Source: Escherichia phage tonnikala
Sequence record: NC_049817.1
Direction: 5' to 3' (one strand)
DNA: 51,277 bases
Notes under the pieces: generated by a model
Told to the model about the DNA's origin: nothing
The model's database searches: none
Seen by the model: only the letters and a program-made list of their open reading frames with translations
Shown: piece after piece, positions 1,085-50,847 of the stretch
How the letters are laid out: each line of letters opens with the position of its first letter
Position numbering within the stretch: the stretch's first letter is position 1
Program-made: the position numbers and the translations under genes

Positions 1085-1103
1085 TAGCATTTTTTGTTAA
1101 AAC
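1085..1103 (+). promoter_or_regulatory. conserved intergenic motif copy (variant TAGCATTTTTTGTTAAAAC), head of helicase operon
   Basis: Matches the repeated 19-bp motif; -10-like TATTAT about 18 nt downstream, then helicase start at 1160. Confidence 0.45.
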
Positions 1104-1159
1104 AGTTTATTGTAATGAGTCTATTATATGCTCCAAATGGCATTTTTTAAAGGTTTAAG

Positions 1160-3157: not shown

Positions 3158-3576
3158 TGGCTATAACTGATAAAGGCGATTATCTTGAGTTTTACGAAAG
3201 GGATCCAACCGACACGAGAAGGGAAGTTAATCACCAGATAGATAGTTTTCAGTGGTTGACTTATGCTCATCCTTATTTGCTGGCGTGGCATACGGTAAAC
3301 GAGAATGAGAAGTCTAAAGTAACGGCGATGATTGATCAGCAGTCCGGCTTGGTTAAGGGAGTAAGCGATTTCATCATCCTGATTGGTTTAAACGGAAAAT
3401 ACCCCTTTGCAGCGATTGAGATCAAACGAGTGAATAAATCAGGCAAGGGGAAAGCATCACCAGTCAGCGATGAACAAAAGGCTTTTTTGCGTCGCGTTCG
3501 CAGCTTAGGAGGATTCGCTGCGGTAGCCTACGGATTCAATCAGTTTAAGTTGGCTATTGAATACATGCTTAAATAG
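3157..3576 (+). CDS. VRR-NUC domain nuclease (PD-(D/E)XK fold)
   Basis: 139 aa; D...EIK core (DFIILIG...AAIEIKR); start overlaps helicase stop (TAATG). Confidence 0.6.
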   Translation: MAITDKGDYLEFYERDPTDTRREVNHQIDSFQWLTYAHPYLLAWHTVNENEKSKVTAMIDQQSGLVKGVSDFIILIGLNGKYPFAAIEIKRVNKSGKGKASPVSDEQKAFLRRVRSLGGFAAVAYGFNQFKLAIEYMLK

Positions 3577-3592
3577 CACTTTTTGTTAAAAC
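3574..3592 (+). promoter_or_regulatory. conserved intergenic motif copy TAGCACTTTTTGTTAAAAC
   Basis: TAG of motif is the stop codon of the VRR-NUC gene; GC hairpin and CATAAT follow 18 nt downstream. Confidence 0.45.
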
Positions 3593-4386: not shown

Positions 4387-4644
4387 ATGAAAAAAGAGAG
4401 AAGCGTTTATTTAAATGAAACTGGCGAATGGTTGTTATTTCGCGCTATGGTGTGCGATGCACTTGATAAAAATCCTAACGTGAAAAAGATGATTGATTGC
4501 GATCCGTGGGAATTTTCAAGCGCATTAGATATGAGCTTTGAGGAGACAAGAAAACTCCCGCTTGAAAAATGGCACGAACAAATCAGAAATGACATGCAAG
4601 AGTTTGTCGATTCGTGGAATTTTCAGCACGGAATGATCCACTAA
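4387..4644 (+). CDS. hypothetical protein
   Basis: 85 aa ORF, tightly packed after the methyltransferase gene. Confidence 0.45.
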   Translation: MKKERSVYLNETGEWLLFRAMVCDALDKNPNVKKMIDCDPWEFSSALDMSFEETRKLPLEKWHEQIRNDMQEFVDSWNFQHGMIH

Positions 4645-4663
4645 TAGCACTTTTTGTTAAAAC
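4645..4663 (+). promoter_or_regulatory. conserved intergenic motif copy
   Basis: Immediately follows TAA stop; hairpin GCCCGGC...CGGGC and CATAAT downstream. Confidence 0.45.
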
Positions 4664-10253: not shown

Positions 10254-10272
10254 GTTTTGTCAAAAAGTGCTA
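10254..10272 (-). promoter_or_regulatory. conserved intergenic motif copy (minus orientation, variant)
   Basis: Reverse complement reads TAGCACTTTTTGACAAAAC; TAG is the stop codon of the 10270..10491 gene. Confidence 0.4.
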
Positions 10273-10491
10273 TTTGATCCGCTCTATTGCAACCAGAAGT
10301 CGATCAGGCTGGCGGTCGCTGTAGCATTCTCCTGTAATCCCATCCTTAAACGTAAAGTAAAGCGCCTTATGATATGAAAAACCAATCAGCCAACCTACCG
10401 CCGTTTTTTTGATGGGCCTGACTATATCGCCAGGCTTGAAAGTCTTTGTGGTAGAATGCGTTACTTTGTAACGGTTTTCACTGTTTATCAC
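10270..10491 (-). CDS. hypothetical protein
   Basis: 73 aa; 4-nt overlap with upstream gene. Confidence 0.45.
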   Translation of the reverse strand: MINSENRYKVTHSTTKTFKPGDIVRPIKKTAVGWLIGFSYHKALYFTFKDGITGECYSDRQPDRLLVAIERIK

Positions 10492-10927: not shown

Positions 10928-10946
10928 CTTTTAACAAAAAGTGCTA
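10928..10946 (-). promoter_or_regulatory. conserved intergenic motif copy (minus orientation)
   Basis: Reverse complement TAGCACTTTTTGTTAAAAG; overlaps stop of the methyltransferase-like gene. Confidence 0.4.
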
Positions 10947-11654
10947 TTTTGAGTTTGACTCAAAGATGGCGCGAGCAAAGCCGCGCGGAGTGAGGGAGCG
11001 GATCATCTTTGTGCGCGATGACTTACCGCCAGTTTTGGCCCAGCCTGGATTATCTTTGTCTTCCTCTTTCGGCAGGATTAAAGCGCGCGGAGGAATAACA
11101 AAGCCGTTGCCAGTCCAGAGGCACGTTTTCTTAAAATAGCGATCCCGTGCCGGAATAATATCAGGGAAGTCGGGATGTTTATCATCTTCCGGCAGATAGC
11201 CAGCGTAATCGCACGGATGGAACGTATAATCAGGCTTACGCCATAACGTTGACAACTTGCCAACCGGATTTTCGATCATGTAAGGAACACCGAAATAATC
11301 AGCTATATCAGCCGCGATTCTGCAAGTGTCGGCGGCCTCATCCTGGAATGATGGATTCTCAAGGCGTTTTTTGGCCCAATGGCGAGATCCGCTATTTGCA
11401 AGGTCGGTGCATGGTGGGAAGGCCATAATAAAATCAGGATTGCCCCACTCATTATTGATTGCCTTAACATAAAAAGCATCATCAATCCAGACGTTAACGT
11501 ATTCGATATTCTCATGCTGTATGCGCACTGACTGGTAATCACCGTGATCGCCACCGTCAGCATTAAAGCAAATGCACTTATAGCCATTATCAGCCCAATC
11601 TTTAACGGCTTTACCAGATCCATCAAATAGGGAGAATATTAAACCTTTATACAT
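10944..11654 (-). CDS. DNA C5-cytosine methyltransferase-like protein (short, atypical)
   Basis: Motif I-like SLFDGSG, catalytic Pro-Cys (AFPPCTD), ENV-like MIENPVG; start set at MYKG with GAGG RBS. Confidence 0.55.
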   Translation of the reverse strand: MYKGLIFSLFDGSGKAVKDWADNGYKCICFNADGGDHGDYQSVRIQHENIEYVNVWIDDAFYVKAINNEWGNPDFIMAFPPCTDLANSGSRHWAKKRLENPSFQDEAADTCRIAADIADYFGVPYMIENPVGKLSTLWRKPDYTFHPCDYAGYLPEDDKHPDFPDIIPARDRYFKKTCLWTGNGFVIPPRALILPKEEDKDNPGWAKTGGKSSRTKMIRSLTPRGFARAIFESNSK

Positions 11655-12963: not shown

Positions 12964-12980
12964 CTTTTAACAAAAAGTGC
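12964..12980 (-). promoter_or_regulatory. conserved intergenic motif copy (minus orientation, variant)
   Basis: Reverse complement GCACTTTTTGTTAAAAG, directly after the stop of the 12984..13391 gene. Confidence 0.4.
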
Positions 12981-12983
12981 TTT

Positions 12984-13690: not shown

Positions 13691-13709
13691 TTTTTAACAA
13701 AAAGTGCTA
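13691..13709 (-). promoter_or_regulatory. conserved intergenic motif copy (minus orientation)
   Basis: Reverse complement TAGCACTTTTTGTTAAAAA directly after TAA stop of the 13711..13974 gene. Confidence 0.4.
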
Positions 13710-13710
13710 T

Positions 13711-14994: not shown

Positions 14995-15013
14995 GTTTTA
15001 ACAAAAAGTGCTA
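14995..15013 (-). promoter_or_regulatory. conserved intergenic motif copy heading the leftward early operon
   Basis: Reverse complement TAGCACTTTTTGTTAAAAC, then 18 nt, then TACATT (-10-like), then RBS and ATG at 14936. Confidence 0.45.
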
Positions 15014-15036
15014 TTTGACGGTTAGCGCCAGGATTG

Positions 15037-16093: not shown

Positions 16094-16365
16094 TGAAAAA
16101 GGCGTTAATCGGCGTTTTGGTGGCAATGGCATTCCTGACCGGATGCAAAGAAGATGGCGCGCATGTTGGCAATGTGCAGATGGCTAACCCTGGCGATGAC
16201 TACAGCGTAAGGGAGCTATTCACCGCTGACGGTTGCACCGTTTACCGATTCTATGACGGTCGCACTGTTTACTTCACCAACTGCAAGGGCACGACTAGCT
16301 GGGAAGTGTCGAAAAGCAATGGCAAAGGCACGAAGACAGAACATATGACCGTCGAGACAAAATAG
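16093..16365 (+). CDS. small lipoprotein
   Basis: Signal peptide with lipobox (MKKALIGVLVAMAFLTGC); 90 aa. Confidence 0.55.
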   Translation: MKKALIGVLVAMAFLTGCKEDGAHVGNVQMANPGDDYSVRELFTADGCTVYRFYDGRTVYFTNCKGTTSWEVSKSNGKGTKTEHMTVETK

Positions 16366-16381
16366 CACTTTTTGTTAAAAC
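16363..16381 (+). promoter_or_regulatory. conserved intergenic motif copy
   Basis: TAG of motif is the stop codon; hairpin GCCAGGC-GCGAA-GCCTGGC then CATAAT 18 nt downstream. Confidence 0.45.
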
Positions 16382-16824: not shown

Positions 16825-16825
16825 A

Positions 16826-16844
16826 TAGCACTTTTTGTTAAAAC
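16826..16844 (+). promoter_or_regulatory. conserved intergenic motif copy
   Basis: Directly after TAA stop; CATAAT 18 nt downstream. Confidence 0.45.
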
Positions 16845-17891: not shown

Positions 17892-18044
17892 ATGGCTACC
17901 TGGATTTTGCTGATTCTTATGATTGATGGCGGCGTTGACCATATCGAAATGAATAGCCAGCAATCTTGCATTGAGGCACGAGAGCAGATCAAGAACAACA
18001 ACAGGTTTTATGCGTACACTCACACGCTATGTATTAAGAAATAG
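17892..18044 (+). CDS. hypothetical small protein (50 aa, below track cutoff)
   Basis: ATG after GAGGTGAGAG; hydrophobic N-terminus MATWILLILMIDGG; stop TAG is part of the next motif copy. Confidence 0.3.
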   Translation: MATWILLILMIDGGVDHIEMNSQQSCIEAREQIKNNNRFYAYTHTLCIKK

Positions 18045-18060
18045 CACTTTTTGTTAAAAC
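18042..18060 (+). promoter_or_regulatory. conserved intergenic motif copy
   Basis: Followed 17 nt downstream by TATAAT inside a GGCCAGG...GGCCC inverted repeat. Confidence 0.45.
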
Positions 18061-18562: not shown

Positions 18563-19273
18563 ATGAAAAAATACACTTTCGAACTGTGGGGCAAGAAGTA
18601 CGAATTAATCACCAGCAAGCCGATTGTTATCGTTGACCTGGACGGAACACTATCGGACGGATCGCATCGTTTGCATTTGCTGCCAACTGAAAACTTGCAC
18701 CTTACGGAATCGTGGCGCGAGTTTAACAGGGCCGCCGCCGGAGATTCACCGATTAAAAGCACTATCGCGGTTATTAACGGTTTATGGGTGTCGGGATTTG
18801 CCATCGTCATCTTGACCGGACGCAGCGACGAGGTTCGCTATGAAACCTGCAAATGGTTGAATGAGAACGGCGTGAAGTTTGACGAAATCATCATGCGCCG
18901 CCAGGAGGACAACCGAAAGGATACGGTTATTAAAGAAGAAGCCTTGCGCGCTATTGGCCTGGACAACATTGTTTGCGCCTTTGACGATTCGCCGAACGTG
19001 GTTAAGCACTTCCGCAGCTTGGGGATCACAACCTATCAGGTCACGGAATACGACAAGCCACACGCTCACATACAATCTCACGGCGTGGAATCAATAAAGA
19101 TCACGAAGCGCGCCCTATTCGTCGGCAGCAAAGACAGCCTGGTCAATGCCAGCTTTATCAAAGGCAAGGTTTATGATGTTCATAGCCATGATAAAAACCG
19201 ATTCTTTTTGTGGGATGAAAAAGGTTTTGGCTGGTGCTTTGAACACGACGACGGCGATTTTGTTAATGCGTAA
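18563..19273 (+). CDS. HAD-superfamily phosphatase, polynucleotide 3'-phosphatase-like
   Basis: HAD motif I VIVDLDGTLSD, motif II ILTGRSD, motif III K...AFDDS; extra C-terminal domain of about 70 aa. Confidence 0.6.
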   Translation: MKKYTFELWGKKYELITSKPIVIVDLDGTLSDGSHRLHLLPTENLHLTESWREFNRAAAGDSPIKSTIAVINGLWVSGFAIVILTGRSDEVRYETCKWLNENGVKFDEIIMRRQEDNRKDTVIKEEALRAIGLDNIVCAFDDSPNVVKHFRSLGITTYQVTEYDKPHAHIQSHGVESIKITKRALFVGSKDSLVNASFIKGKVYDVHSHDKNRFFLWDEKGFGWCFEHDDGDFVNA

Positions 19274-19292
19274 TAGCACTTTTTGTTAAAAC
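19274..19292 (+). promoter_or_regulatory. conserved intergenic motif copy
   Basis: Directly after TAA stop; TATAGT 18 nt downstream within a GGGCTTGCGG...AAGCCC hairpin. Confidence 0.45.
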
Positions 19293-20187: not shown

Positions 20188-20778
20188 ATGAAACGAGACA
20201 TTATCATCCTTAATGGGCCTCCAGGTTGCGGGAAGGACACTATTGCAGCTTACCTAACAGGCCATCGTTACCCAGCGGTCAAGGCGTCATTCAAACAGCC
20301 GATGTTCGATATTGCGTTTTCCATGCTGGGCGTGTACCGATACGATGAATTTATGGACCTGTACAACGACCGAGAACAAAAAGAAAAGCCTCAAGTTATT
20401 TTGGGCGGCAAGTCACCTCGACAATTCATGATCTGGATTAGCGAGGATGTAATGAAGCCAGTTTTTGGAGATCACTATTTCGGGCGTCGAATGGTTGAAG
20501 AGATTCACGAGATGTACCGAGATTTGGCGGTTGTGATCAGTGATGGCGGATTCCCCGAAGAAATCAAGCCGCTCGTTAAGGCTGGGCATGAGTTGCATAT
20601 TTGCCGATTGCATCGCGACGGATTCACGTTTGCTGGCGATTCGAGAGACTATATTGACCTGAGCGGTTATCACTATCGAATCCATCACTATGATTTCCAC
20701 TTGCAGGACGGCAAGCCTGAACTGGCTGTAAACGAGATCGTCAATGCAGTCAAATGGAAGCACACACAGATTAAATAG
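20188..20778 (+). CDS. P-loop nucleotide kinase, deoxynucleoside monophosphate kinase-like
   Basis: Walker A ILNGPPGCGKDT at N-terminus; overall layout resembles phage dNMP kinases. Confidence 0.55.
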   Translation: MKRDIIILNGPPGCGKDTIAAYLTGHRYPAVKASFKQPMFDIAFSMLGVYRYDEFMDLYNDREQKEKPQVILGGKSPRQFMIWISEDVMKPVFGDHYFGRRMVEEIHEMYRDLAVVISDGGFPEEIKPLVKAGHELHICRLHRDGFTFAGDSRDYIDLSGYHYRIHHYDFHLQDGKPELAVNEIVNAVKWKHTQIK

Positions 20779-20794
20779 CACGAATTGCTAAACG
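20776..20794 (+). promoter_or_regulatory. conserved motif variant (TAGCACGAATTGCTAAACG)
   Basis: TAG is the kinase stop codon; hairpin GCGGGG...CCCCGC then TATAAT. Confidence 0.4.
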
Positions 20795-21778: not shown

Positions 21779-22069
21779 ATGGCAAACAAAACTTACCGCA
21801 AACTACTGGTTAACGCTTTTGAAAACATCGCGCAGTCTAACAAGTGGAACGACTCTAAACACTCGCCAGTCACAATGAAGCGCGCCGGATTCAAAAATGC
21901 TCGTTCATGGGCGCGAGCTTTCGCAGCTTGCTATATGCCGGATGGTGGGCTAGGAACGATGAACGATTTTTTGATCAACATGATAGAGGAAGCGGCGCGA
22001 GAGGATCGACCGCTGACACAGCGAGATTTTGACGACTTCGCGCGCGATGAGCTTTACTATCTGAGCTAA
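21779..22069 (+). CDS. hypothetical protein
   Basis: 96 aa. Confidence 0.45.
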   Translation: MANKTYRKLLVNAFENIAQSNKWNDSKHSPVTMKRAGFKNARSWARAFAACYMPDGGLGTMNDFLINMIEEAAREDRPLTQRDFDDFARDELYYLS

Positions 22070-22088
22070 TAGCACTTTTTGTTAAAAC
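22070..22088 (+). promoter_or_regulatory. conserved intergenic motif copy
   Basis: Directly after TAA stop; GGGCATTTGATAAAGTGCCC hairpin with -10-like box downstream. Confidence 0.45.
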
Positions 22089-24720: not shown

Positions 24721-26288
24721 TGATCATATGGGAAGATTTGACGGCGGCGCAAAAGCGAGCCATTAAAGAAATCAGTGAGCATTCATTCGAAAAGATGATC
24801 AGAATCTGGTTCCAATTATTGCAGGGGCAAAAATTCCAGAGCAACTGGCATTTTAGCTTATTGTGCAGTGAGGTAGAGAAGATCATCAATGGAGAGTCGC
24901 AGAATGTGATTTTCAACATTACGCCAGGTAGCGGCAAGACTGAGATTTTCTCGATCCACATGTCACCCTACGCGTCATTGAAAAGCCGGAAAGTGAGAAA
25001 CCTTAACCTTTCGTTTAGTGATGGCCTTGTCCAGCAAAACAGCAACCGGATAAAGGAGATTATTGGTTCTCCTGAGTGGCAAGAGCTATGGCCTGGAAAA
25101 CTGGCAAAGGCGAGCGCTAAAGATCTGATAGTCACCGAAGGCGGCAAGGTTAAATTGCAAGTTAACTCACGTTCTATTGGCGGCCAGGTAACAGGTTTGC
25201 GTGGCGGCTATATGGATGATGGTTTTACTGGTATGCTGGTTCTTGACGATCCAGACAAGCCGGATGACATGCTTTCTAAGGTCAAGCGCGAGGCTATTCA
25301 CATGCGGTTAAAAAACACAGTGCGATCGCGTCGAATGAAAGACACCACGCCAATCGTTATGGTGCAACAGCGACTACACGTTAATGATTCCACTTGGTTC
25401 ATGCTTAATGGCGGGATGGGTGGTATTGAGTTTAAAGTCGTGAGCATTCCGGCGCTGGTTACGAAAGAATACCGCGAAACGCTTCCTGATTGGTTGAAGT
25501 CTGAATTTGATCGTGATGTGCTGTCAAGTAAGCCAGTGATGATAGATGGTGTTGCTCATTATTCATTTTGGCCTGCGAAGGAAAGCGCGGAGGAGTTGCT
25601 CGCATTGCGCAATGCAGATCCTTACACGTTCGCCAGCCAATACCAACAGCAACCAATCGCGCTGGGCGGGAACGTGTTTAAAACAGAGTGGTTCCAGTAT
25701 TACGGCAGCGGCGAAAAATGCGCACTTCCTAAACCGGATCGCTTTGAATACACATTTATTACTGGAGATACCGCGCAGAAGGCCGGAGAGCTTAACGACT
25801 ATTCAGTTTTTTGTTATTGGGGGATGTATAAGAATCGCGTTTACTTCATTGATGGCATTCGCGGAAAGTGGGAAGCGCCGGATCTTGAATTAAATTTTAT
25901 TGCCTTCGTTAACCAGTGCTGGAAGCGCAATAAGGAGTGTGGCAGCTTGCGACGTATCCACATTGAGGATAAGGCCAGCGGCACGGGTTTGATTCAGGGG
26001 GCCAAAAAGAAGATCCAGATTGATATAAATCCCGTTCAGCGAAGCAATGACAAGGTAACGCGAGCAATGGACGCCGCGCCAGTGATGAGGGCAGGACGTG
26101 TGGCGCTGCCAGAAAATCACCCAATGCTGCCTGAGATACTGGCAGAGGTTGCAGCATTCACTTTTGATGATTCTCATCCCCATGATGATATTGTCGATAA
26201 TATAGTTGATGCTGTTAACGTCGAAATGAATTTGGCAGATGATCCGGTAGCAAGGATGAAAAAGCTGGCAGGTCTACGCAATAAATAG
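24720..26288 (+). CDS. terminase large subunit
   Basis: 522 aa; Walker A-like ITPGSGKTE in N-terminal ATPase region; precedes portal. Confidence 0.8.
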   Translation: MIIWEDLTAAQKRAIKEISEHSFEKMIRIWFQLLQGQKFQSNWHFSLLCSEVEKIINGESQNVIFNITPGSGKTEIFSIHMSPYASLKSRKVRNLNLSFSDGLVQQNSNRIKEIIGSPEWQELWPGKLAKASAKDLIVTEGGKVKLQVNSRSIGGQVTGLRGGYMDDGFTGMLVLDDPDKPDDMLSKVKREAIHMRLKNTVRSRRMKDTTPIVMVQQRLHVNDSTWFMLNGGMGGIEFKVVSIPALVTKEYRETLPDWLKSEFDRDVLSSKPVMIDGVAHYSFWPAKESAEELLALRNADPYTFASQYQQQPIALGGNVFKTEWFQYYGSGEKCALPKPDRFEYTFITGDTAQKAGELNDYSVFCYWGMYKNRVYFIDGIRGKWEAPDLELNFIAFVNQCWKRNKECGSLRRIHIEDKASGTGLIQGAKKKIQIDINPVQRSNDKVTRAMDAAPVMRAGRVALPENHPMLPEILAEVAAFTFDDSHPHDDIVDNIVDAVNVEMNLADDPVARMKKLAGLRNK

Positions 26289-26305
26289 CACTAATTGCTA
26301 AAAAG
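26286..26305 (+). promoter_or_regulatory. conserved motif variant (TAGCACTAATTGCTAAAAAG)
   Basis: TAG is the terminase stop codon; TATAAT follows, then a terminator hairpin. Confidence 0.4.
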
Positions 26306-30885: not shown

Positions 30886-30910
30886 CTAATAGCATAAAAA
30901 AACATTGCAC

Positions 30911-30928
30911 GTTTAACAAAAAGTGCTA
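30911..30928 (-). promoter_or_regulatory. conserved motif copy in reverse orientation upstream of capsid gene
   Basis: GTTTAACAAAAAGTGCTA on + strand, followed by terminator hairpin and capsid RBS. Confidence 0.4.
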
Positions 30929-30935
30929 TCATCTA

Positions 30936-30961
30936 GGCCGTTACATTTAACGGCCTTTTTT
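30936..30961 (+). terminator. rho-independent terminator immediately upstream of capsid gene
   Basis: GGCCGTTA-CATT-TAACGGCC hairpin plus TTTTTT, 15 nt before capsid ATG. Confidence 0.5.
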
Positions 30962-30975
30962 ATGGAGGAAGCAAA

Positions 30976-31947
30976 ATGGCTAAAAAATATGATGAACTAG
31001 ATGCTACGATTGTGGCGAATCATTTGCAGATTCAGGGTGTTAAGTCCGACGCTTCTGATATGGGCATTTGGACCGCTCAAGAGCTACACAAGATCCGCTC
31101 TACCGCATACGAGAAAGAGTATCCGGCAGGTTCCGCGCTTCGCGTATTCCCTGTAACAAACGAGCTTTCTGATACTGACAAGACTTTCGAATATCAGACT
31201 TTTGATAAGGTTGGCTACGCGAAAATTATCGCCGACTACACCGATGATCTGCCGACTGTGGACGCGTTGATGACTTCTGAGTTTGGCAAAGTGTTCCGCC
31301 TGGGTAACGCTTATCTAATCTCCATTGATGAGATTAAAGCAGGTCAGCGAACTGGCAAGAGCCTGTCAACTCGCAAGGCTAACGCTGCGCAAAATGCGCA
31401 TGATCAGTTGATTAACTTCCTGGTGTTCAAAGGTTCCAAGCCTCATAAGATCGTTTCCGTTTTCGATCATCCTAACCTTACGAAAATTGTTTCTAAAGGC
31501 TGGATGAGCCAGGACGGCAATACCAAGTTCCCGGAAGTGGCAAGCGATGAACTGGAGGCCGCAATCGAAACGATCGAGGAAGTAACCAAAGGTCAGCACC
31601 GCGCGACCAATATCCTGATCCCGCCGTCCATGCGCAAAGTCCTGACGGTTCGAATGGAAAATACCACTGAAAGTTATCTGGAATACTTCCAGAAGCAAAA
31701 CGGCGGTATCACTATCGACTCTATCGCAGAGCTTGAGGATATTGACGGCAAAGGTACGAAAGGTTGCTTGGTTTACGAAAAAGATCCAATGAACATGAGC
31801 ATTGAGATTCCAGAAGCGTTTAACATGCTTCCGGCGCAGCCAAAAGACCTACATTTCAAGGTTCCTTGCACTTCCAAGTGTACTGGCCTTACGATTTATC
31901 GTCCGTTTACGATGGTGCTCATTACCGGCTTGAAAAAAGCTGAGTAA
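30976..31947 (+). CDS. major capsid protein
   Basis: 323 aa, strong GGAGG RBS, position between scaffold-like and connector genes, flanked by terminators. Confidence 0.7.
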   Translation: MAKKYDELDATIVANHLQIQGVKSDASDMGIWTAQELHKIRSTAYEKEYPAGSALRVFPVTNELSDTDKTFEYQTFDKVGYAKIIADYTDDLPTVDALMTSEFGKVFRLGNAYLISIDEIKAGQRTGKSLSTRKANAAQNAHDQLINFLVFKGSKPHKIVSVFDHPNLTKIVSKGWMSQDGNTKFPEVASDELEAAIETIEEVTKGQHRATNILIPPSMRKVLTVRMENTTESYLEYFQKQNGGITIDSIAELEDIDGKGTKGCLVYEKDPMNMSIEIPEAFNMLPAQPKDLHFKVPCTSKCTGLTIYRPFTMVLITGLKKAE

Positions 31948-31958
31948 TTAGATAACAT

Positions 31959-31988
31959 GGGGAGCCTTAAGGGTTCCCCTTTTTTTAT
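31959..31988 (+). terminator. rho-independent terminator after capsid gene
   Basis: GGGGAGCC-TTAA-GGGTTCCCC hairpin plus TTTTTTT. Confidence 0.55.
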
Positions 31989-32004
31989 TTATGGAGTGCA
32001 TAAA

Positions 32005-32271
32005 ATGAGCAAAAATTTAAAACTTAAAGTAACTGGCGTTTGCATGATTATTATGGACGGTAAGCGTTATCATCCTGGTGATGAAATTGAAATTGAATCT
32101 GAACGCATTAATGATTCCGCAATTGAATACCTGATCGCTCGCGGTGATGTGGAAGTTAAAGACAATTCCGAAATTAACGAGCAAATCAAGGCGAAAGCGG
32201 AGAAGAAGCGCAAAAAAGATCCTACCGAGGGCAAGAGCCGCAAAGAGCTAGAGGACGGCGGCGAATATTAA
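32005..32271 (+). CDS. hypothetical head-module protein
   Basis: Start set at MSKNLKLK; Lys-rich C-terminus; 88 aa. Confidence 0.4.
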
Positions 32272-32276
32272 TAATT

Positions 32277-32299
32277 GGGGCGCTTATGCGCCCTTTGTC
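32277..32299 (+). terminator. terminator-like hairpin
   Basis: GGGGCGC-TTAT-GCGCCCC then TTTGTCA; near-identical to the hairpin at 47787. Confidence 0.4.
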
Positions 32300-32317
32300 A
32301 CATCTGGAGAAAACAAA

Positions 32318-32737
32318 ATGGTAGATGAATTTTACACAGACGCTGAAATCATGCAGCAAATCGTAAAGTTAGCGCCGCCAATGCAACAGGTCGATCCCGA
32401 TTTAATTGTGGCATGGATTGAGCTTGCTAAAGAGTTTGTTTGCAAAAAACGGTTTAAAAACTCATACCCTAAAGCGGTTGCGCTTTACACTCTTCACCTT
32501 ATGACCTTAGACGGGGCAATGAAACAGGAAGGTGAAAGCGTAGAAAGCTATTCCCGCCGCGTCGCCTCGTTCACTCTGACTGGTGAGTTTAGTCAGACGT
32601 TTGATCGAATCTCTTCCGATACAAGCGGAAAGCAGATCCGACAAACGCCGTGGGGCAAAATGTACGAAGTGTTAAACCGTAAGCACGGTGGCGGCTTTGG
32701 CCTTGTGACTGGATTGCGCCGGAGATGCTGCCGATGA
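32318..32737 (+). CDS. head-tail connector protein (gp6-like)
   Basis: 139 aa; position and size fit head-tail adaptor proteins. Confidence 0.45.
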
Positions 32738-33105
32738 ACTACAATGAGATTGCAAGAATGGCTACGGCTGGGATTAACTTTTTCAGCGACGCTAACGGTA
32801 TGTTTAAGTGCATCACGCAGCAGGGAGGGGTTGAGATTATCGGTGGAGAGGAAGTTACCAAGCCGGAGATTTCAGTGATGATAAAGGGGCTTGTTAGATC
32901 TCCGAGGACTAGAGAGGTTGACGGTGAAACAATCCGAGTAACCGACAAGTTGGGGATATTCACCAATGAAACTGAGATCAAAAATGGTTATCAGATTGAA
33001 ATTGATGGCGAACGTTATGTTGTCGTTGAAGCAAGACCAGTCAGGCAGACTAACATCACGGCGGCTTATCGTCCGATATTAAGGAGGATTGCTGTGCATG
33101 GCTGA
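32734..33105 (+). CDS. head-tail joining protein
   Basis: Start set at MNYNE overlapping previous stop (ATGA); small neck-module protein. Confidence 0.4.
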
Positions 33106-33541
33106 TAATTATAAGATCAGGGAATTTCACGGTGATATAAGCAGGTGGATTGATTCAGTAAGCAGCGGCCTTGTTGATTGCGTTGAAATGTTCGCGACAA
33201 ACGTCCACGAGGATCTTGTAAATCGCTCGCCAGTTGATGCGGGCCGATATAAAGCCAACTGGCAGATAACAGCAAACAAGCCGCCGCTATATGCGCTCAA
33301 CCAATACGATCGCGATGGTGGTAAAACCATTGCAGAAGGTAAGCGAGCAATATATGCAATCATGCGTGGCGGTGGCGCGGTGCGGTCAATCTATTTTTCA
33401 AACATGCTCATTTACGCCAACGCGCTTGAATACGGGCATTCAAAACAAGCGCCGTCCGGCGTACTTGGAATCGTGGCGGTAAAGCTGCGATCTTATATGG
33501 CTAAGGCAATAAAGGATTCGAGGGCAAAAAATGCACTATGA
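33098..33541 (+). CDS. HK97 gp10-like neck / tail-completion protein
   Basis: Motif RSPVDAGRYKANW resembles the conserved PVDTG segment of HK97 gp10 family; AAGGAGG RBS. Confidence 0.5.
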   Translation: MADNYKIREFHGDISRWIDSVSSGLVDCVEMFATNVHEDLVNRSPVDAGRYKANWQITANKPPLYALNQYDRDGGKTIAEGKRAIYAIMRGGGAVRSIYFSNMLIYANALEYGHSKQAPSGVLGIVAVKLRSYMAKAIKDSRAKNAL

Positions 33542-33932
33542 TTTAATGTTGGCGGCAAGAAAGGCGCTGGCGGCTGAATATGAATCACGATTTAAGATAG
33601 CCTATGAAAACGTTGATTTTGTGCCGCCTGGAGATGGTTCTATGTGGTTAAAATTTAACTACATGGAAGCAGACACGGATCGCATATCTCTTGATAGAAA
33701 ATGTGTTTCTTATATCGGTTTGGTTCAGGTTGGAATTGTCATTCCTCCTGGCGGTGGCACTGATAAAGCGCGTTTGCTGGCTAAAGAGATTGCGAGATTT
33801 TTCTATGATGGTAGAATGCTTGAAACTGGCTATATTAGCGAGGGGGCAAACGTCCACACGTTACTAAAAAGTGAAACAGGTTGGTTATTGCCGATCCGTT
33901 TCAGTGTTAGGCTTGATACAAAGGAGGAATAA
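33531..33932 (+). CDS. tail terminator protein
   Basis: 133 aa immediately upstream of major tail protein. Confidence 0.45.
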   Translation: MHYDLMLAARKALAAEYESRFKIAYENVDFVPPGDGSMWLKFNYMEADTDRISLDRKCVSYIGLVQVGIVIPPGGGTDKARLLAKEIARFFYDGRMLETGYISEGANVHTLLKSETGWLLPIRFSVRLDTKEE

Positions 33933-33934
33933 TC

Positions 33935-34597
33935 ATGCACTTGCCTAATGGTTCTCAAATTTTCATCGGCGTTAATATGGGTGAGCCAATTAGCGCGACT
34001 CAAATCAGCAATGCTGATAATCCTGTTTTTACAACCGAAAACACTCAAAGCATCCAAAAAGGCGCTTATGTTCTTATTGAAACATCTTCCTGGGGCAAAC
34101 TGGTTAGTCGTGTGTTGCGAGTAAAGGAAGTATCTGATAACGCAAGTGTAACTCTTGAAGGAGTAGATACAACCGATCAGAACGTGTTTCCGGCTGGTTC
34201 TAATACAGCAACCTTCCGAGAAGTAAAATCATGGGTAGAGATTCCTTGCGTACAGGATCTTGCGCAGGACGGAGGCGAGCAACAGTATTACACTTATCAG
34301 TGTTTGGCTGATGACCAGGAGCAGCAGTTACCGACATACAAGAGCGCAGTTTCTCTTACCTACACCTTCGCGCATGAATATGATAATCCGATTTATCCGA
34401 TCTTGCGCGAGGCTGAGGAATCCGGCGACGTAACCGCTTTGCGTATGTACGTTCCGAAAGCTAAAGAGATGCGTTGCTGGGCTGGCGTATTGTCCTTTAA
34501 TGACATTCCGCAAACCACTATGAACGAAATGGAAACTGTTTCCCTTTCCGTATCTCTGAAAGGTCGATTCACGTTCTTACCTTCTGACGTTAAGTAA
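33935..34597 (+). CDS. major tail protein
   Basis: 220 aa with strong AAAGGAGG RBS, directly upstream of the chaperone/frameshift pair and tape measure. Confidence 0.6.
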   Translation: MHLPNGSQIFIGVNMGEPISATQISNADNPVFTTENTQSIQKGAYVLIETSSWGKLVSRVLRVKEVSDNASVTLEGVDTTDQNVFPAGSNTATFREVKSWVEIPCVQDLAQDGGEQQYYTYQCLADDQEQQLPTYKSAVSLTYTFAHEYDNPIYPILREAEESGDVTALRMYVPKAKEMRCWAGVLSFNDIPQTTMNEMETVSLSVSLKGRFTFLPSDVK

Positions 34598-34602
34598 AAC
34601 AA

Positions 34603-34624
34603 GGGGCGTTGCGCCCCTTTTTTC
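34603..34624 (+). terminator. rho-independent terminator
   Basis: GGGGCG-TTG-CGCCCC hairpin plus TTTTTTT after major tail gene. Confidence 0.5.
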
Positions 34625-34662
34625 ATTCCTGTAAAATCAATCTATCAAATAAATTAATTCCA

Positions 34663-34681
34663 CTTTTAACAAAAAGTGCTA
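34663..34681 (-). promoter_or_regulatory. conserved motif copy in reverse orientation abutting RBS of tail chaperone gene
   Basis: CTTTTAACAAAAAGTGCTA followed directly by AAGGAG and ATG at 34697. Confidence 0.4.
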
Positions 34682-34696
34682 TAAGGAGATCTTGAG

Positions 34697-40565: not shown

Positions 40566-40614
40566 GTGCCTTTATAATGTGTAAACCAAGAAACAGCACA
40601 AAAGGTTAAAAGTC

Positions 40615-44068: not shown

Positions 44069-44683
44069 TTAATCATAGTGTGATGCATTTATAACCAAAA
44101 CAGATGAAGCGGTGTAAATACCAACAGGTCCAGGGGTTTGTGCAACCTGCCTGGAAAAAGAGTAGATCCCGTTACCATACGCGGCAGCTTGAGACTCAAA
44201 AATCATAAATCCACCTAAAGCCGGATTAGGTACAGAGTTTAACGCTGTTAGTGATGGCATTATTGCGCAAGGGTAGCCCAGGTTAACATCAAACGCGATC
44301 CCGCTCACACCAACTTGCTTTGCATCAAGCGGCCTCATTTTTCCATGATAAACCATTTCACCATGAGCGTTATAAAACGCTATGCCGTGACTACCTGGAG
44401 GAGTCACCATGTTACTAAAAGCATAAACAATAACCTCCCCTTGATTATCAGATCTATCAATTCTTATTGCGTGCCTTCCACCATTGTTAAATTGCGTAAA
44501 TGATATGTATGATTTAGCAGTCAATCTAACAAAGAAAAAACATACCCTATCAACAGGAATTGACGAAGTAAAAACGGTTCCGGTATTAGCAGATATTACT
44601 GCCCGATCAATTAGATTAACTGGAGTGAAATCTGGACTTAACCATAACGATCCGTCTGATTTTTTTATACTCATCCCGTACAT
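44069..44683 (-). CDS. hypothetical protein (leftward module adjacent to tail genes)
   Basis: Start set at MYGMS with GGGGGTGA RBS; 204 aa; shares short sequence pattern with upstream 92-aa protein. Confidence 0.5.
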   Translation of the reverse strand: MYGMSIKKSDGSLWLSPDFTPVNLIDRAVISANTGTVFTSSIPVDRVCFFFVRLTAKSYISFTQFNNGGRHAIRIDRSDNQGEVIVYAFSNMVTPPGSHGIAFYNAHGEMVYHGKMRPLDAKQVGVSGIAFDVNLGYPCAIMPSLTALNSVPNPALGGFMIFESQAAAYGNGIYSFSRQVAQTPGPVGIYTASSVLVINASHYD

Positions 44684-44685
44684 TA

Positions 44686-44964
44686 TCACCCCCAAAAAGT
44701 ATATATATATCTTGAATCAGATCCAGAAAGCCCACTCCATGTAACGGTGTCGCCACTTACCCCTAAGTTTGGCGCCCCAGGGTCGCCACCGCGCCAGGAA
44801 TTCATGCCAACATATATTGCTTTCAATGATTTACCTGGCGGCCTGTTTTGGTAAGTCTTGCTACCTGATGGCTGAGTGAATTTATCAAGAAAGAAAACAG
44901 GCGTTAAAAGTCCTGTAACTTCCCTCCCTCGATCGTCATATATTGCATAACCATATTGCGCCAT
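44686..44964 (-). CDS. hypothetical protein
   Basis: 92 aa, Gly-rich. Confidence 0.45.
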   Translation of the reverse strand: MAQYGYAIYDDRGREVTGLLTPVFFLDKFTQPSGSKTYQNRPPGKSLKAIYVGMNSWRGGDPGAPNLGVSGDTVTWSGLSGSDSRYIYTFWG

Positions 44965-45239
44965 TAATTACACCTCAAATCAATAAATTTACTTTCATTT
45001 TGCCAGCGGTTGATAAATTTAACTTCTTTATTGTCAACGCTCAACCTGTATTGCTTTTGGCTGAATCTGTTTTCGCGGACTGCATTAATTTTGACCTCAT
45101 GGAATCCGTTAACAGGGAATGTTTTAACGTTAAATTTTGCCGTGCAATCGATCTCTTTGAAGCCGCCAGTAGGCGACGCTGCGCATCCGGTCAGAGCGGC
45201 TACGGTGGCGATAACTGCGATTAATTTTTTCATCTTCAA
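44964..45239 (-). CDS. lipoprotein, candidate superinfection-exclusion protein
   Basis: Signal peptide plus lipobox (MKKLIAVIATVAALTGC); first gene of leftward operon next to tail-tip genes. Confidence 0.55.
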   Translation of the reverse strand: MKMKKLIAVIATVAALTGCAASPTGGFKEIDCTAKFNVKTFPVNGFHEVKINAVRENRFSQKQYRLSVDNKEVKFINRWQNESKFIDLRCN

Positions 45240-45288: not shown

Positions 45289-45306
45289 GTTTAGCAAAAA
45301 GTGCTA
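45289..45306 (-). promoter_or_regulatory. conserved motif copy (minus orientation, variant) heading leftward operon
   Basis: Reverse complement TAGCACTTTTTGCTAAAC, then 18 nt, then TATAGT, then AAGGAG RBS and ATG at 45239. Confidence 0.45.
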
Positions 45307-45677
45307 CTTGTTATTTTTTGTTTTTCGGTGTTATCGAATTTAAGACGGCGTAAATTTAGCTCAAATTTTAGCCAACATGAGAGCGATAAACAATCAATAA
45401 AATAGATATATACATATAAAATCAATAGTTTATTTATTTATGTATGTATATTTGTTTTTTCTTGTTATCTGTGTTTCTTGTGGTTTTGGTTGTTTGTGGT
45501 GATTTTTCTTTCTGAGTATCTGTATGTGCCATCATTCATGTGTATGTATATAATCCGGCGTATCTGAGAGAACAAAGGGAACAAGAAAAATAACACATAT
45601 TAATCATTGACTTACATTTCAAATTTGTTTTCTTGCAATCTAAGAACGTTTAGAAAACAGAAAAAACAAAACAACTA

Positions 45678-48301: not shown

Positions 48302-50782
48302 TTAGTCTGTATCTGTTGGATTGTTGATTAATTTCGCTACCGCTTTTCTTAGATCATCTATCTCTTTCTCCATTTTCTCAATTTTCCCCCCCATGTAGAC
48401 CATAGCGCAAGCCATATCTGTTAGCATAACATTGCTATCTAGCGCCAATGTGTCATCATTTCTGTCAGTTTCAATCTGACGATCAATGTATTCCTCACCA
48501 TTTTCATCAACTCCAATCACATCCTCAAATACCGGCGAGCCTGGAACTAGCTTTACATATTGTGGATCGATTTTTAACAGATCTTGAGCTATCAGGCCAA
48601 AACGTTGAACATCAGATCCGTTATATTTAAACATAGCAGGCAACCATTGCATTACGCGATCGTAGCTTTCCTTTCCGTCTGTGTATTTAATGTCGTGTTT
48701 CAAATCACGATCGGACGTTGGGTTTTTTGCGAAAATAAAAGAACCTCCGCCGAAACCTTGCTCCCATGTAGTAATGTCACCAGCATATGTAAAATGATAA
48801 GCACGATGAAAACGACCATCACCATTTAACTTTAGCGCTACATCAGGCCACGCGGCATTTCCTTTTGATACAACACCAAGCCCAACTCGCATATGATAAC
48901 CGCCAGTTGATAAAGAGCCACCAGAAACAACAGGACTCCAACCAGAGTCATTGTTTGTAACTGAGTTTGCGTAGTATGGCGCCCCCATGTGATCCCATTC
49001 AAGACCCCATGCGCCTTGTACACACTGACCATTAAAACCACGCTGCGCAGTCATGTATCCACCGTAATCATTGTGGAATCTAAACTCTTTGACGTCAGAT
49101 CCTTGATTATTAACCAATACTTTTACATGGGCTATATCAGTAGAGCCGCCTCTTACAGCGCCAAATTGCCAGAATCCACCGTACCAGTTGCCTTGTAGCA
49201 AGTTTACCCATCCATAAGCTCCACCATCTCCTGATGCGTTTGTCAGGTAAATATCTTTATCACCTCCTTCGGCAGTTCCGCAGCCAACTCGCATTGCCTG
49301 TTTTGCAGTAATCCACCCGTTAGAGTAAAGCCCACCAGTTCCATTGATTTCAACATGATGTAGACCTGATAACTTTGAGTTTTCATCAAATTGCAGGTAT
49401 CCGTGCTTGTCTCCTTCATTGTTTGCTGTATGTATTGTTGTTTTCCATAATCCGCCTTGCTTTTCAGCGTATACCCGAGAATAACCCCGAGAAACACCAT
49501 CATCACCCTTTGCGTGTAAATTCAAGATTCCACTAAGCTCAGCAGCTCCAGCATATTGATGAACAAGATCTAGATCGGAAAATCTTGGTGTTTGTCTCTC
49601 ACCCAATCCAAGACCATCCCTAAACAAAAGAATATCGCGGATAACATAATCATTAATCGCATAGAATCCTGTGTTAGTTAAAACCATTGCCCTTACTTCT
49701 GTACATTCAGCGGCAGGATCTGTCGCACCAAACTTAAAAACTGTTGCGTTTTCAACAAAACCATCTGGCGCATAATCTGATGTTGGGACAACAACATCAA
49801 TATTGCTTTCACAGTGAATGCTAACAGGAAATGCGCCGCCTCGAATGTAAACTGCAAACGCCTTTTGTGTTGCTTTCGCTGGCATCAAAATAGAATCAAT
49901 AGTTCTTTCATCTTTCTGATAGATGGTGAAATTACCATAAACGCTATCAACGCCGTCAGACCATCCAGAAGTACGAGCATAGCCAGCAAATGACGCTGAA
50001 TTATAAGGATAATCACCAGTCCTATTACTAGTTGAGATCTGGAAGAAAACGCCTAATTGACTCATATCACCAACGTTCTTTTCTTGGAAGATCACAGGGT
50101 AATATTTTGCATCTTCCGCACCCGCTGGAGCGTTTACAGTTCTTTCGTATTTCCAGCCCTGATAACCTACAACTGCTTGATGCGCTCTATCAGCTTCCAT
50201 TTCGGCGCGGTTTGCTTGCTGCAATGCGTTGGCTGAATGGTTAGCAGCCTGATCTCGCGCCGAGTTAATTTCCGCTACCGCTGAATCTTTGATCTGTTGC
50301 GTTTGTTGCATGTAGCCTTTTGCTGATTCAGCATGATTAAAAGATTGACCAGCCCATGTTTGCGCGTTTTGTTCGCTTTGTGCTGCTGATGCCGCATTTC
50401 TCACTGTTTCATCACGTAAGTCAATCAGCTTTTGCAGATCAAAGTTCCTGAAAAATTCAATTGCTTCCTCTATCTGCGTTTCCTTGCTTTGATAGTAGCG
50501 CAGCGTTTCAGCTACATCTTGCGCCAGACCGTCAACAGTGATCGAGTCATGCAGTAAAATGATGTAATTGCTTCGCGCAATTTCAGATCCGCCAGTTGTG
50601 ATGGCGCGGATTTGCGTATCACTAATAACCTCACTGATTACCGCCGCCTGAAAAGGGGCGTCAATAAAAAATATTGTCGCACCTGGGCGAATCAAGGTTA
50701 ATTGCTCACGCCATTTTGTGTCGTAACCAGTTACATAACCTTGCGCGTCCATAGACGCTTGGCCTTGTCTGTAAATTGCCAT
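48302..50782 (-). CDS. tail fibre protein with C-terminal intramolecular chaperone (peptidase S74) domain
   Basis: 827 aa from ATG with AGGAGG RBS; C-terminal segment (DRDLKHDIKYTDG...RFGLIAQDL...) typical of S74 auto-cleaving chaperone domains. Confidence 0.7.
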   Translation of the reverse strand: MAIYRQGQASMDAQGYVTGYDTKWREQLTLIRPGATIFFIDAPFQAAVISEVISDTQIRAITTGGSEIARSNYIILLHDSITVDGLAQDVAETLRYYQSKETQIEEAIEFFRNFDLQKLIDLRDETVRNAASAAQSEQNAQTWAGQSFNHAESAKGYMQQTQQIKDSAVAEINSARDQAANHSANALQQANRAEMEADRAHQAVVGYQGWKYERTVNAPAGAEDAKYYPVIFQEKNVGDMSQLGVFFQISTSNRTGDYPYNSASFAGYARTSGWSDGVDSVYGNFTIYQKDERTIDSILMPAKATQKAFAVYIRGGAFPVSIHCESNIDVVVPTSDYAPDGFVENATVFKFGATDPAAECTEVRAMVLTNTGFYAINDYVIRDILLFRDGLGLGERQTPRFSDLDLVHQYAGAAELSGILNLHAKGDDGVSRGYSRVYAEKQGGLWKTTIHTANNEGDKHGYLQFDENSKLSGLHHVEINGTGGLYSNGWITAKQAMRVGCGTAEGGDKDIYLTNASGDGGAYGWVNLLQGNWYGGFWQFGAVRGGSTDIAHVKVLVNNQGSDVKEFRFHNDYGGYMTAQRGFNGQCVQGAWGLEWDHMGAPYYANSVTNNDSGWSPVVSGGSLSTGGYHMRVGLGVVSKGNAAWPDVALKLNGDGRFHRAYHFTYAGDITTWEQGFGGGSFIFAKNPTSDRDLKHDIKYTDGKESYDRVMQWLPAMFKYNGSDVQRFGLIAQDLLKIDPQYVKLVPGSPVFEDVIGVDENGEEYIDRQIETDRNDDTLALDSNVMLTDMACAMVYMGGKIEKMEKEIDDLRKAVAKLINNPTDTD

Positions 50783-50800
50783 TTGTAAAATCCTCCTAAA

Positions 50801-50819
50801 TAGCACTTTTTGCTAATGA
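50801..50819 (+). promoter_or_regulatory. conserved motif copy (variant) abutting RBS of the leftward tail fibre gene
   Basis: TAGCACTTTTTGCTAATGAC on + strand, immediately 5' (in gene sense) of the tail fibre RBS. Confidence 0.4.
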
Positions 50820-50847
50820 CAATGCAGATAATAGCATTTTCAAATGC

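Follow-up and report, generated by a model that had tools for sequence, protein, structure and literature searches.

The closest described counterpart of the element studied here is a 21-nt repeat, aaATAGCACnnnTTGnTAAAA, which was reported in 2024 from phage TLS at 18 intergenic places, where it is oriented with transcription, stands about 76 nt ahead of start codons and occurs in the subtypes TTT, GAA and AAA (PMC11447400). Similar repeats are present in T1, Rtp and Rogue1 according to the TLS authors, who listed the function of the repeat as an unanswered question and raised stoperators, enhancer sites and UP elements as ideas (PMC11447400). In this study, we analyzed the genome of Escherichia phage tonnikala (sequence record NC_049817.1), a stretch of 51,277 bp that is called the window hereafter. 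Its repeat belongs to the known family, sharing with the TLS repeats the sequence aaATAGCACnnnTTGnTAAAA, the same T/G/A subtypes and a number of about 20 copies per genome; the copies that lie in promoter units, here called cassettes, also share the position about 76 nt before start codons. In contrast, three copies ahead of late structural genes are inverted and end 14-47 nt from the start codon, and these inverted late copies are an undescribed variant of the use of the repeat. T1-like phages are common contaminants of laboratories and fermentations as well as candidates for phage therapy.

Several known regulatory systems resemble parts of this arrangement. At the lambda operator OR, cI bound to OR2 activates PRM from about -42 and represses PR. 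The Mor and C promoters of phage Mu have a -10 box without a -35 hexamer, and a dyad near -43, overlapping the -35 region, is bound by a small helix-turn-helix (HTH) dimer. Stoperators are asymmetric 13-mers that are bound by the immunity repressor of a temperate phage and block elongation. The early-promoter stem-loop units (PeSLs) of T4-type phages are composite terminator/promoter sequences that mediate indels (PMC2839356, PMC4122927).

Our analysis suggested, tentatively, that the repeat is one DNA operator, which would activate from -42 and would repress, or compete with, transcription at late promoters; we find this account plausible, if somewhat short of probable. The sequence geometry of the sites and its conservation across the family were observed directly. 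As the repeat stands at -42 of most predicted promoters but lies within or closely follows a small number of strong late promoters and the promoter of a regulator gene, the published question becomes a set of concrete experiments.

Over a test segment of 7 kb (29000-36000), the window shares 98% identity with Escherichia phages vB_EcoD_Poky, MikeNSara and FritzSarasin, which are placed in Drexlerviridae, Tempevirinae, Warwickvirus. Because the two ends (50889-51277 and 1 to about 595) each hold part of one primase gene, the window appears to be a near-complete, circularly permuted genome of a T1-like coliphage. Copies of the repeat were scored at the 15 specified positions of the family consensus aaATAGCACnnnTTGnTAAAA, taken from the TLS paper. 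At least 13/15 matches were found at 19 sites in the window against 0.2 in shuffles, and AACAAAAAGTGCTA gave 19 matches with at most two mismatches against 0.72 expected by chance, being exact at 30915-30928 (+) and 34668-34681 (+) and one mismatch away at 50801-50814 (-). These three places are the copies ahead of the major capsid, tail chaperone and leftward tail fibre genes, which score 14/15, 15/15 and 13/15, end 47, 14 and 17 nt before the ATG, respectively, and are all intergenic (between annotated genes). Each is inverted relative to the following gene and to the roughly 14 cassette copies, in which ATAGCAC...TAAAA reads along transcription. Two other matches, at 9294 and 35291, lie inside genes, score below 12/15 and were treated as chance.

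The site reads ATAGCAC-nnn-TTG(C/T)TAAAA, in which the two conserved blocks are spaced by one turn of the helix and the triplet at the centre is free (TTT, GAA, TAA); its core is the imperfect dyad TAGCA-N5-TG(C/T)TA. G3, C4 and G12 are invariant among the copies of the window; at position 13, C (31 copies) and T (29 copies) are about equally common, and TTGACA and TTGCTA variants are seen at positions 10-15. The half-sites pair at 4/5 positions in T-type copies and at 5/5 in G-type or TTGCTA copies, with asymmetric flanks, and the perfect dyad TAGCA-N5-TGCTA is present in about half of the cassette copies (31/64).

About 14 copies in the window belong to cassettes, aligned here in the ATAGCAC orientation with index 1 at the T of TAGCAC. 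Each cassette consists of the motif (index 0-18), a variable GC-rich inverted repeat and a -10-like hexamer at index 38-43, followed by a conserved CATCGAAACGA from index 49, a Shine-Dalgarno (SD) sequence and an ATG at about index 76. The cassette copies, scored and aligned except where marked, are:

3573..3591, plus strand: forward cassette copy, -10 at index 38-43
4644..4662, plus strand: cassette copy
10255..10273, minus strand: cassette copy, TTGACA variant
10929..10947, minus strand: cassette copy
12965..12983, minus strand: cassette copy
13692..13710, minus strand: cassette copy
14996..15014, minus strand: cassette copy
16362..16380, plus strand: cassette copy
16825..16843, plus strand: cassette copy
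18041..18059, plus strand: cassette copy, -10 shifted by 1
19273..19291, plus strand: cassette copy
20775..20793, plus strand: cassette copy, G-type TAGCACGAATTGCTA, perfect 5-N5-5 dyad (scored)
22069..22087, plus strand: cassette copy
45289..45307, minus strand: cassette copy ahead of the leftward operon 45239..44069

Four genera were compared (this phage, T1, Rtp and Klebsiella phage NPat), giving 84 copies with at least 12/15 matches. The pattern nAnnnT stood exactly at index 38-43 in 64 of the 84, with about 8 more shifted by one position either way; TATAGT, TATTAT, CATAAT and TATAAT were the commonest hexamers and CCATC the commonest start context. With the usual 7-nt distance from the -10 box, the start is predicted at the A of the conserved CAT (index 50), which would place the motif centre (index 8) at -42. 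The -35 position (index 15-20) reads AAAACN, so that there is no -35 hexamer, and the -10 box follows TTAAAA by 19 nt. TTGnTA lies 22 nt from the -10, a distance that exceeds the tolerance of sigma-70. Because the -35 hexamer is missing, TTGnTA is too distant and the register of the -10 is fixed, we read the cassettes as promoters in which a conserved upstream block replaces the -35. On the predicted starts, the class II activating position (centre about -41.5 to -43.5, no -35) is found at the cassettes and at a leftward promoter of the chaperone site described below.

The GC-rich inverted repeat differs in sequence each time and lies between the motif and the -10 or encloses the -10 (16381-16399, 10911-10929, 3592-3611). 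Several of these hairpins are annotated as rho-independent terminators in T1; a role as terminators of antisense transcription was rejected, since a simple terminator scan called none on either strand. In Rtp, full forward cassettes (16304-16380 and 8426-8500) drive late-region genes, namely rtp34 ahead of the chaperone and the virion protein gene rtp22 after terL, and because of these the predicted cassette type is not confined to early genes. A perfect consensus sigma-70 promoter, TTGACA-16-TATAAT (12/12), was found at 15570-15597 (+), close ahead of the gene that opens the rightward early arm (15596); unlike the -35-less cassettes, it probably serves immediate-early transcription.

At the capsid gene, the inverted copy lies within a sigma-70 promoter, which comprises the following features:

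30905..30910, plus strand: -35 hexamer TTGCAC of the predicted capsid promoter (TTGnnn 16 nt, range 15-17, upstream of TAnnnT in 75/75 regions)
30911..30929, minus strand: repeat copy, inverted relative to the capsid gene, with the ATAGCACTTTTTGTTAAAC consensus on the minus strand (14/15; kept in relatives; TLS DR7)
30924..30932, plus strand: extended -10 TG-c-TATCAT of the predicted capsid promoter (TG at 30924-30925, hexamer 30927-30932)
30935..30962, plus strand: hairpin AGGCCGTTA/TAACGGCCT plus T6 between promoter and capsid SD (terminator-like call)
30964-30968 and 30976, plus strand: capsid SD and capsid ATG (read from sequence)

From this spacing, transcription is predicted to start at about 30937-30940. 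The capsid sample consisted of 79 IMG/VR loci with a capsid identity of 54-99%, which gave 75 distinct upstream regions. TTGnnn-16-TG-n-TAnnnT was kept in all 75, 65 being recognized by script and 10 by eye, the latter with a 17-nt spacer or with ATGA replacing GTGC. The inverted motif is flanked by TTGCAC, TTGACC, TTGACG or TTGAAC, and the hexamer 16 nt on is always TAnnnT (TATCAT, TATTAT, TATATT or TATTCT across relatives); TG at -15/-14 is always present, with an A-rich block further upstream. The motif here forms the spacer and extended -10 of what is, by its sequence, a strong sigma-70 promoter, and so lies upstream of the predicted start. In Webervirus the motif of the capsid promoter has decayed to 11/15, yet the cassettes there keep the consensus; because the promoter is kept while the motif decays, the capsid promoter would be independent of the motif, which would be an add-on. 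In Table S1 of the TLS paper, the capsid-proximal copy is entered as DR7 on the negative strand beside terminator T35, the counterpart of the capsid hairpin, without comment (PMC11447400). A leftward promoter at the capsid copy was rejected, as the TA at index 38-39 comes from a neighbouring stop codon and T43 is not conserved.

The capsid hairpin has a z-score of -3.0 with its full 5' arm. Per-sequence folding placed the beginning of the stem 1-4 nt past the -10 in 17/17 diverse relatives, with differing stem sequences, and the predicted start lies inside the 5' arm. Transcripts that come from upstream would meet the full terminator, and transcripts from the capsid promoter would carry only a truncated stem.

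The chaperone copy was found between two overlapping, divergent promoters:

34601..34625, plus strand: terminator after the major tail gene, whose loop holds the -35 TTGCGC (34609-34614) of the predicted chaperone promoter (terminator scan)
34632..34637, plus strand: -10 TAAAAT of the rightward chaperone promoter, predicted start about 34644 (conserved in relatives)
34639..34644, minus strand: -10 TAGATT after TGa of a leftward cassette-type promoter, index 38-43, predicted start about 34632 (cassette register)
34664..34682, minus strand: repeat copy ATAGCACTTTTTGTTAAAA on the minus strand, inverted relative to the chaperone gene (15/15)
34683-34688 and 34697, plus strand: chaperone SD AAGGAG, directly after the CTAT of the repeat, and chaperone ATG

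On the predicted starts, the copy covers about +21 to +39 relative to the rightward promoter and is placed at -42 relative to its leftward counterpart. The rightward promoter, TTGnnn-N16-18 (with the T-run inside)-(T/C)AnnnT, was recognized in 56/60 distinct regions; its -35 in the terminator loop is TTGCGC, TTGCAC or TTGTGC across the family, and its -10 (TAAAAT, TAGAAT, TACAAT, TAATAT or CATAAT) is conserved with or without the motif. The motif itself is present in 20/60 distinct relatives, always inverted and 12-23 nt before the ATG. In all 20 motif-bearing relatives a leftward TAnnnT stands at the exact cassette register, in 11 different hexamers and with TGn before it in 16, and this pattern is not kept in motif-less relatives (few rows, read by eye). 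We therefore read the chaperone copy also as the upstream block, at -42, of a cassette-type promoter that is conserved, directed leftward and overlaps the rightward one. That leftward promoter leads only into the bidirectional terminator 34619-34601. At the same position, Rtp has a forward cassette plus the extra gene rtp34.

The hexamer formed by the repeat end and three further bases (34680-34685) reads TATAAG, TATCAA, TATTTA, TATCGG, TATCAC, TATTCA, TATTAG or TATTAC, never ending in T in these 8 distinct variants, and a functional -10 may be avoided at this place. The inverted copy as a -10 box for the chaperone and fibre genes was rejected, as TATAAG and TATTTA lack the final T, no conserved -35 is present and the start would fall after the SD.

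The tail fibre gene is read leftward, and its copy follows the promoter:

50828..50836, minus strand: extended -10 TG-c-TATTAT of the predicted tail fibre promoter, predicted start about 50820 (conserved in relatives)
50800..50818, plus strand: repeat copy ATAGCACTTTTTGCTAATG on the plus strand, inverted relative to the leftward tail fibre gene (13/15)
50780..50797, minus strand: fibre SD GGAGG and true ATG 50782, with GGAGG 9 nt upstream (read from sequence)

The promoter follows the primase terminator, and the repeat lies at about +3 to +21 of the predicted transcript, its CTAT leading directly into TTAGGAGG, before the SD and ATG. The sequence AAATGCTATTAT, which holds the extended -10, is conserved in 7/8 IMG/VR loci. 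The equivalents in Rtp (TGcTACAAT) and T1 (TGaTAAAAT) are each followed by a G-type copy, so that three genera have an extended -10 with the motif behind it at about +1 to +21, the centre being T-type or G-type; the copy is absent in four relatives. A promoter in the cassette register is absent at the fibre copy in this window, in Rtp and in T1. The box TTTGAAAATGCTATTAT (50828-50845, -) resembles a shortened inverted repeat (compare TTTAACAAAAAGTGCTATCAT at the capsid), and fibre-type late promoters may be derived from the repeat. In the mechanical list of open reading frames, the fibre frame begins at a GTG inside the repeat (50804-50806, -) instead of the real ATG 50782.

A further inverted copy adjoins the SD of an early gene, the one for the candidate binding protein:

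1084..1102, plus strand: repeat copy ATAGCATTTTTTGTTAAAA, at -42 of the predicted helicase promoter and, counted from the divergent regulator start, at about +15 to +33 (aligned)
1122..1128: overlapping -10 boxes, TATTAT (plus strand, 1122-1127) for the helicase and TATAAT (minus strand, 1128..1123) for the regulator
596..1072, minus strand: Cro-like HTH gene of 158 aa, candidate repeat-binding protein (profile matches)

On the helicase side this copy is part of a normal forward cassette with the ATG (1160) at index 76; on the regulator side the mRNA start is predicted at about 1116 and the repeat abuts the SD (1078-1083). The arrangement is kept in 37/39 distinct relatives, and this is the most conserved of the inverted copies that abut an SD. 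The regulator matches phrog_2856, a transcriptional regulator (E = 1.6e-72), has weak Pfam matches to YdaS/P22_Cro, matches P22 Cro (1rzs) in a profile comparison (E = 0.0023) and is 54-59% identical in T1 and Rtp. Distant homologues were searched for covariation between regulator and motif; only members of Drexlerviridae (at least 51% identity) were recovered, all with the same motif. In TLS, one of only three canonical sigma-70 promoters found by the authors, P57, drives the equivalent of this gene; DR11 with P57 corresponds to the regulator/helicase copy, and DR8 and DR10 to two of the copies below (PMC11447400).

Forward copies also occur near late genes and after the regulator gene:

26285..26303, plus strand: forward copy preceding the portal gene, its TAGCAC separated by exactly 17 nt from TATAAT downstream (26309-26314)
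40593..40611, plus strand: forward copy, degenerate (12/15), within the tail-tip J leader, ATG 40615 (T1 25022 equivalent; TLS DR8)
594..612, minus strand: forward copy, degenerate (11/15), behind the regulator gene, with a terminator and then the primase SD downstream (T1 35977, NPat 26500; TLS DR10)

At the portal gene, a hairpin with a T-run (26316-26344) follows the -10 and precedes the SD and the ATG (26359); the arrangement is conserved in Tempevirinae, and the -10 and hairpin are kept also where the motif is absent. Portal (26309-26344) and capsid (30927-30962) promoters share a terminator-like hairpin 1-4 nt past the -10 with the predicted start in its 5' arm. The J promoter consists of TTGCGC (40550-55, in a terminator loop), 17 nt and TATAAT (40573-78), and the degenerate copy would lie at about +9 to +27. 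In T1, a forward copy abuts the SD of terS. Because forward copies precede portal, J and T1 terS, the orientation of the repeat relative to late genes, as read from these sites, is not fixed.

The original prediction had placed the motif, reversed, directly in front of the capsid, chaperone and fibre genes. The motif is indeed at all three sites, twice exactly and once with one mismatch and far above chance, and it is inverted there relative to both the genes and the cassette copies. The accompanying view of one element used in both orientations with different neighbours was likewise borne out. Other parts held at some sites only. The motif abuts the ribosome-binding site at the chaperone gene (CTAT, then AAGGAG) and the fibre gene; at the capsid gene a 22-nt hairpin and T-run (30935-30962) intervene. 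The 5' leaders of late mRNAs, which were expected to carry the motif, would do so downstream of the predicted chaperone and fibre promoters and would lack it at the capsid gene, where the motif is upstream of the predicted start. Inverted copies do precede the three late structural genes, but another serves the early HTH regulator (1084-1102), and the portal and J copies are forward. The proximity to the SD can be ascribed to a fixed promoter geometry in very short intergenic gaps.

In the favoured operator model, a sequence-specific protein would bind the repeat, most likely the phage Cro-like HTH regulator (1072..596) as a dimer, and the effect of the repeat would be set by its position relative to a host sigma-70 promoter. 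At the cassettes, a repeat at about -42 with the GC-rich inverted repeat in the -35 space would make up the classical class II activator geometry. The late and regulator sites would overlap the core or first transcribed bases of self-sufficient promoters, with repeat centres at about -18 for the capsid (in the spacer), +13 for the fibre, +31 for the chaperone and +25 for the regulator gene, and the chaperone and regulator sites would also stand at -42 of an overlapping divergent promoter. Protein bound at these places would hinder or compete with transcription of the late genes and the regulator gene; a single factor could in this way switch on the cassette genes while restraining the late genes and its own. 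An operator for a dimeric HTH protein is suggested because the repeat has two blocks, perfect dyads in half of its copies, invariant G3, C4 and G12, a fixed -42 register and a site shared by regulator and helicase. For the start sites, the binding protein and the direction of regulation, these proposals are drawn from the sequence. The predicted repressing positions often carry ATAGCAT for ATAGCAC, as in the regulator copy (this window, Rtp and NPat) and many capsid copies, and such copies may be weaker sites.

A bolder extension, which we offer as speculation and think unlikely, is that the whole transcription programme of this virulent T1-like phage is run by one small Cro-like protein and about 20 operator copies. 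The protein, made from a rare canonical promoter, would activate about 14 -35-less cassettes from -42 and would damp both the regulator gene and the promoters of capsid, portal, tail chaperone and tail fibre, through occupancy of core or leader or through a geneless overlapping decoy promoter; its dilution over replicating genomes would flip early to late expression. If true, this programme would answer the published open question on the Drexlerviridae 21-nt repeat.

Comparison with the known systems places this arrangement between several of them. With lambda OR and other shared-operator switches, the regulator/helicase site has in common a regulator divergent from its target and a shared operator at about -42 of one promoter and inside the core or transcribed region of the other, the candidate regulator here being a Cro-like HTH protein. 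In contrast to lambda, the phage is virulent, the operator is a single site instead of a tripartite one, about 20 further sites are spread over the genome, and both binding and the direction of regulation are predicted. The cassettes share with the Mu Mor/C promoters a -10 without a -35 and an element centred near -42, but no Mor/C-family match was obtained among the proteins examined here, for which Pfam gave Cro/YdaS-like matches, and the element is also found at positions expected to repress. As with the stoperators of cluster A mycobacteriophages (L5 gp71), many short intergenic copies are present, some of them downstream of promoters, whereas most copies here lie upstream of predicted starts at a fixed activating register. 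To our knowledge, no immunity system is known in this virulent family. PeSLs are likewise repeated intergenic units of an early promoter and a stem-loop between small open reading frames, linked to gain and loss of modules, and the GC-rich inverted repeat between motif and -10 or around the -10 is a PeSL-type feature of the cassettes. The sequences are unrelated, however, the phage family is different, and no separate operator-like block or embedding in late promoters is reported for PeSLs (PMC2839356, PMC4122927).

Several points weigh against the operator model. The dyad has 4-5 pairs of 7, which by a rough estimate is not significant alone, and its flanks are asymmetric. The invariant orientation of the cassettes could stem from shared ancestry or from a genuine asymmetry. 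Read in reverse, ATAGCA gives TGCTAT, which is a typical extended -10, so that polymerase itself might be the reader. An early-made factor that represses late promoters needs a release mechanism, and none was identified. Many relatives lack the chaperone and fibre copies, which are therefore dispensable. Furthermore, the structure predicted for the regulator by AlphaFold from its single sequence was too poor for use (pLDDT 36), and no start-site maps or transcriptomes of T1-like phages were found in the literature. There is also a second HTH candidate, a phosphoesterase-like protein (5076-6341, +) whose N-terminal HTH resembles sigma-70 region 4; Sigma70_r4_2 scored 26.6 bits in NPat gp35 (31222-32352), above the cutoff, and 18 bits in the 5076-6341 protein, below it.

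Host RNA polymerase could also read the element directly, with no extra factor, an explanation that we judge unlikely and that would make the result more ordinary. The T/A tracts and TTGnTA of the cassettes would then be UP-like or a displaced -35, the reversed GTGCTAT would serve as the extended -10 (TGnTAT) of capsid-type promoters, and at the chaperone and fibre genes the copies would be capsid-type promoters that are weak or have decayed, or else just the upstream part of a divergent cassette promoter. The good extended -10 of the capsid promoter (TGcTATCAT), kept in all relatives, fits such direct reading, as do the fibre box AAAATGCTATTAT, which resembles a shortened copy of the same element, the TTGACA and TTGCTA variants at positions 10-15, and the UP-element idea of the TLS authors. 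However, the 22 nt between TTGnTA and the -10 of the cassettes are beyond the sigma-70 range, the A-tract is about 8 bp off the UP-subsite position, and invariant G and C positions are atypical of UP elements; the would-be chaperone -10 ends in T in 0/8 distinct variants and would start transcription after the SD, and the capsid promoter outlasts the decay of the motif in Webervirus. It is rather improbable that the late copies are recombination by-products of the promoter/stem-loop cassettes, PeSL-like marks of module gain and loss with little regulatory function. The cassettes do join motif, GC-rich stem-loop and -10 between small early frames, as in the published description of PeSLs, the chaperone copy is found in only 20/60 relatives, the fibre copy is patchy, and Rtp has a forward cassette with rtp34 at the chaperone position. 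Nevertheless, TAnnnT of the leftward chaperone promoter persists in 20/20 relatives despite variable middle bases, 37/39 relatives retain the copy at the regulator gene, and the fibre copy recurs in three genera with different centres; these patterns all point to selection on the late copies themselves.

The original prediction had added a post-transcriptional role to a transcriptional one, and an action of the transcribed inverted motif as RNA, whether as a translational enhancer, as a protein site in the mRNA or by pairing with read-through early transcripts, now seems very unlikely. The predicted promoters do put the motif into the chaperone, fibre and regulator leaders, directly 5' of the SD, and the sequence is A/U-rich like the known S1-binding enhancers. 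On the other side, the capsid copy precedes the predicted start, folding of the leaders is not improved over that of shuffles (z = 0.09, 0.06, 0.53), 40/60 relatives have no copy in the chaperone leader, and swaps between T-type and G-type triplets at orthologous sites change the RNA but keep the outer DNA blocks. In addition, the J leader here and the terS leader of T1 carry the opposite strand, and such use of both orientations in late leaders would be expected of a DNA site rather than of an RNA signal. Loading of an antiterminator at the capsid and portal motifs, as at the Q-binding element of lambda PR', for passage through the hairpin and the late terminators, would suit a motif that overlaps the -35 or spacer at both promoters, a terminator-like hairpin within a few bases and a late region punctuated by terminators. 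Yet the hairpin begins 1-4 nt past the -10 with the predicted start in its 5' arm, which alone would permit escape, the cassette copies at -42 and the copies after starts are left unexplained, and no Q-like protein was identified; we consider this explanation extremely unlikely.

Several known site types were compared with the repeat and rejected. For a promoter of a T7-like phage polymerase (CTATA-AGGAGA), no phage RNA polymerase is annotated in the family and the copies have no common start context. The sigma-54 consensus is TGGCAC-N5-TTGCW, with GG and GC exactly 10 nt apart; in the repeat (TAGCAC-N3-TTGC), AG replaces GG and AG...G(C/T) are 8 nt apart, a spacing 2 nt too short. Sites for IHF, DnaA, CRP and Fis gave no fit when consensus sequences were compared by eye, and the T4 MotA box (TGCTTtA) has no -10 at the required 11-13 nt. 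The Lrp consensus matches 12-13/15 repeat positions, which leaves Lrp as a possible host candidate.

Late terminators with a -35-like TTGCGC or TTGCAC in the hairpin loop and a -10 16-17 nt on, past the T-run, were found at 34601-34637 and 40545-40578. This overlap of a terminator with the next promoter is shared by 56/60 distinct relatives at the chaperone site; in this window, the J gene has it too. Such compact modules, with a -35 in a terminator loop or a start site in a terminator stem, are possible parts for synthetic biology. The terS module (24120-24196) combines a terminator, an extended -10 TGgTATAAT and a short leader TCTAACAAAAGGAGG; this leader is in part similar to the inverted repeat (AACAAAAAG), although it does not count among the scored copies.

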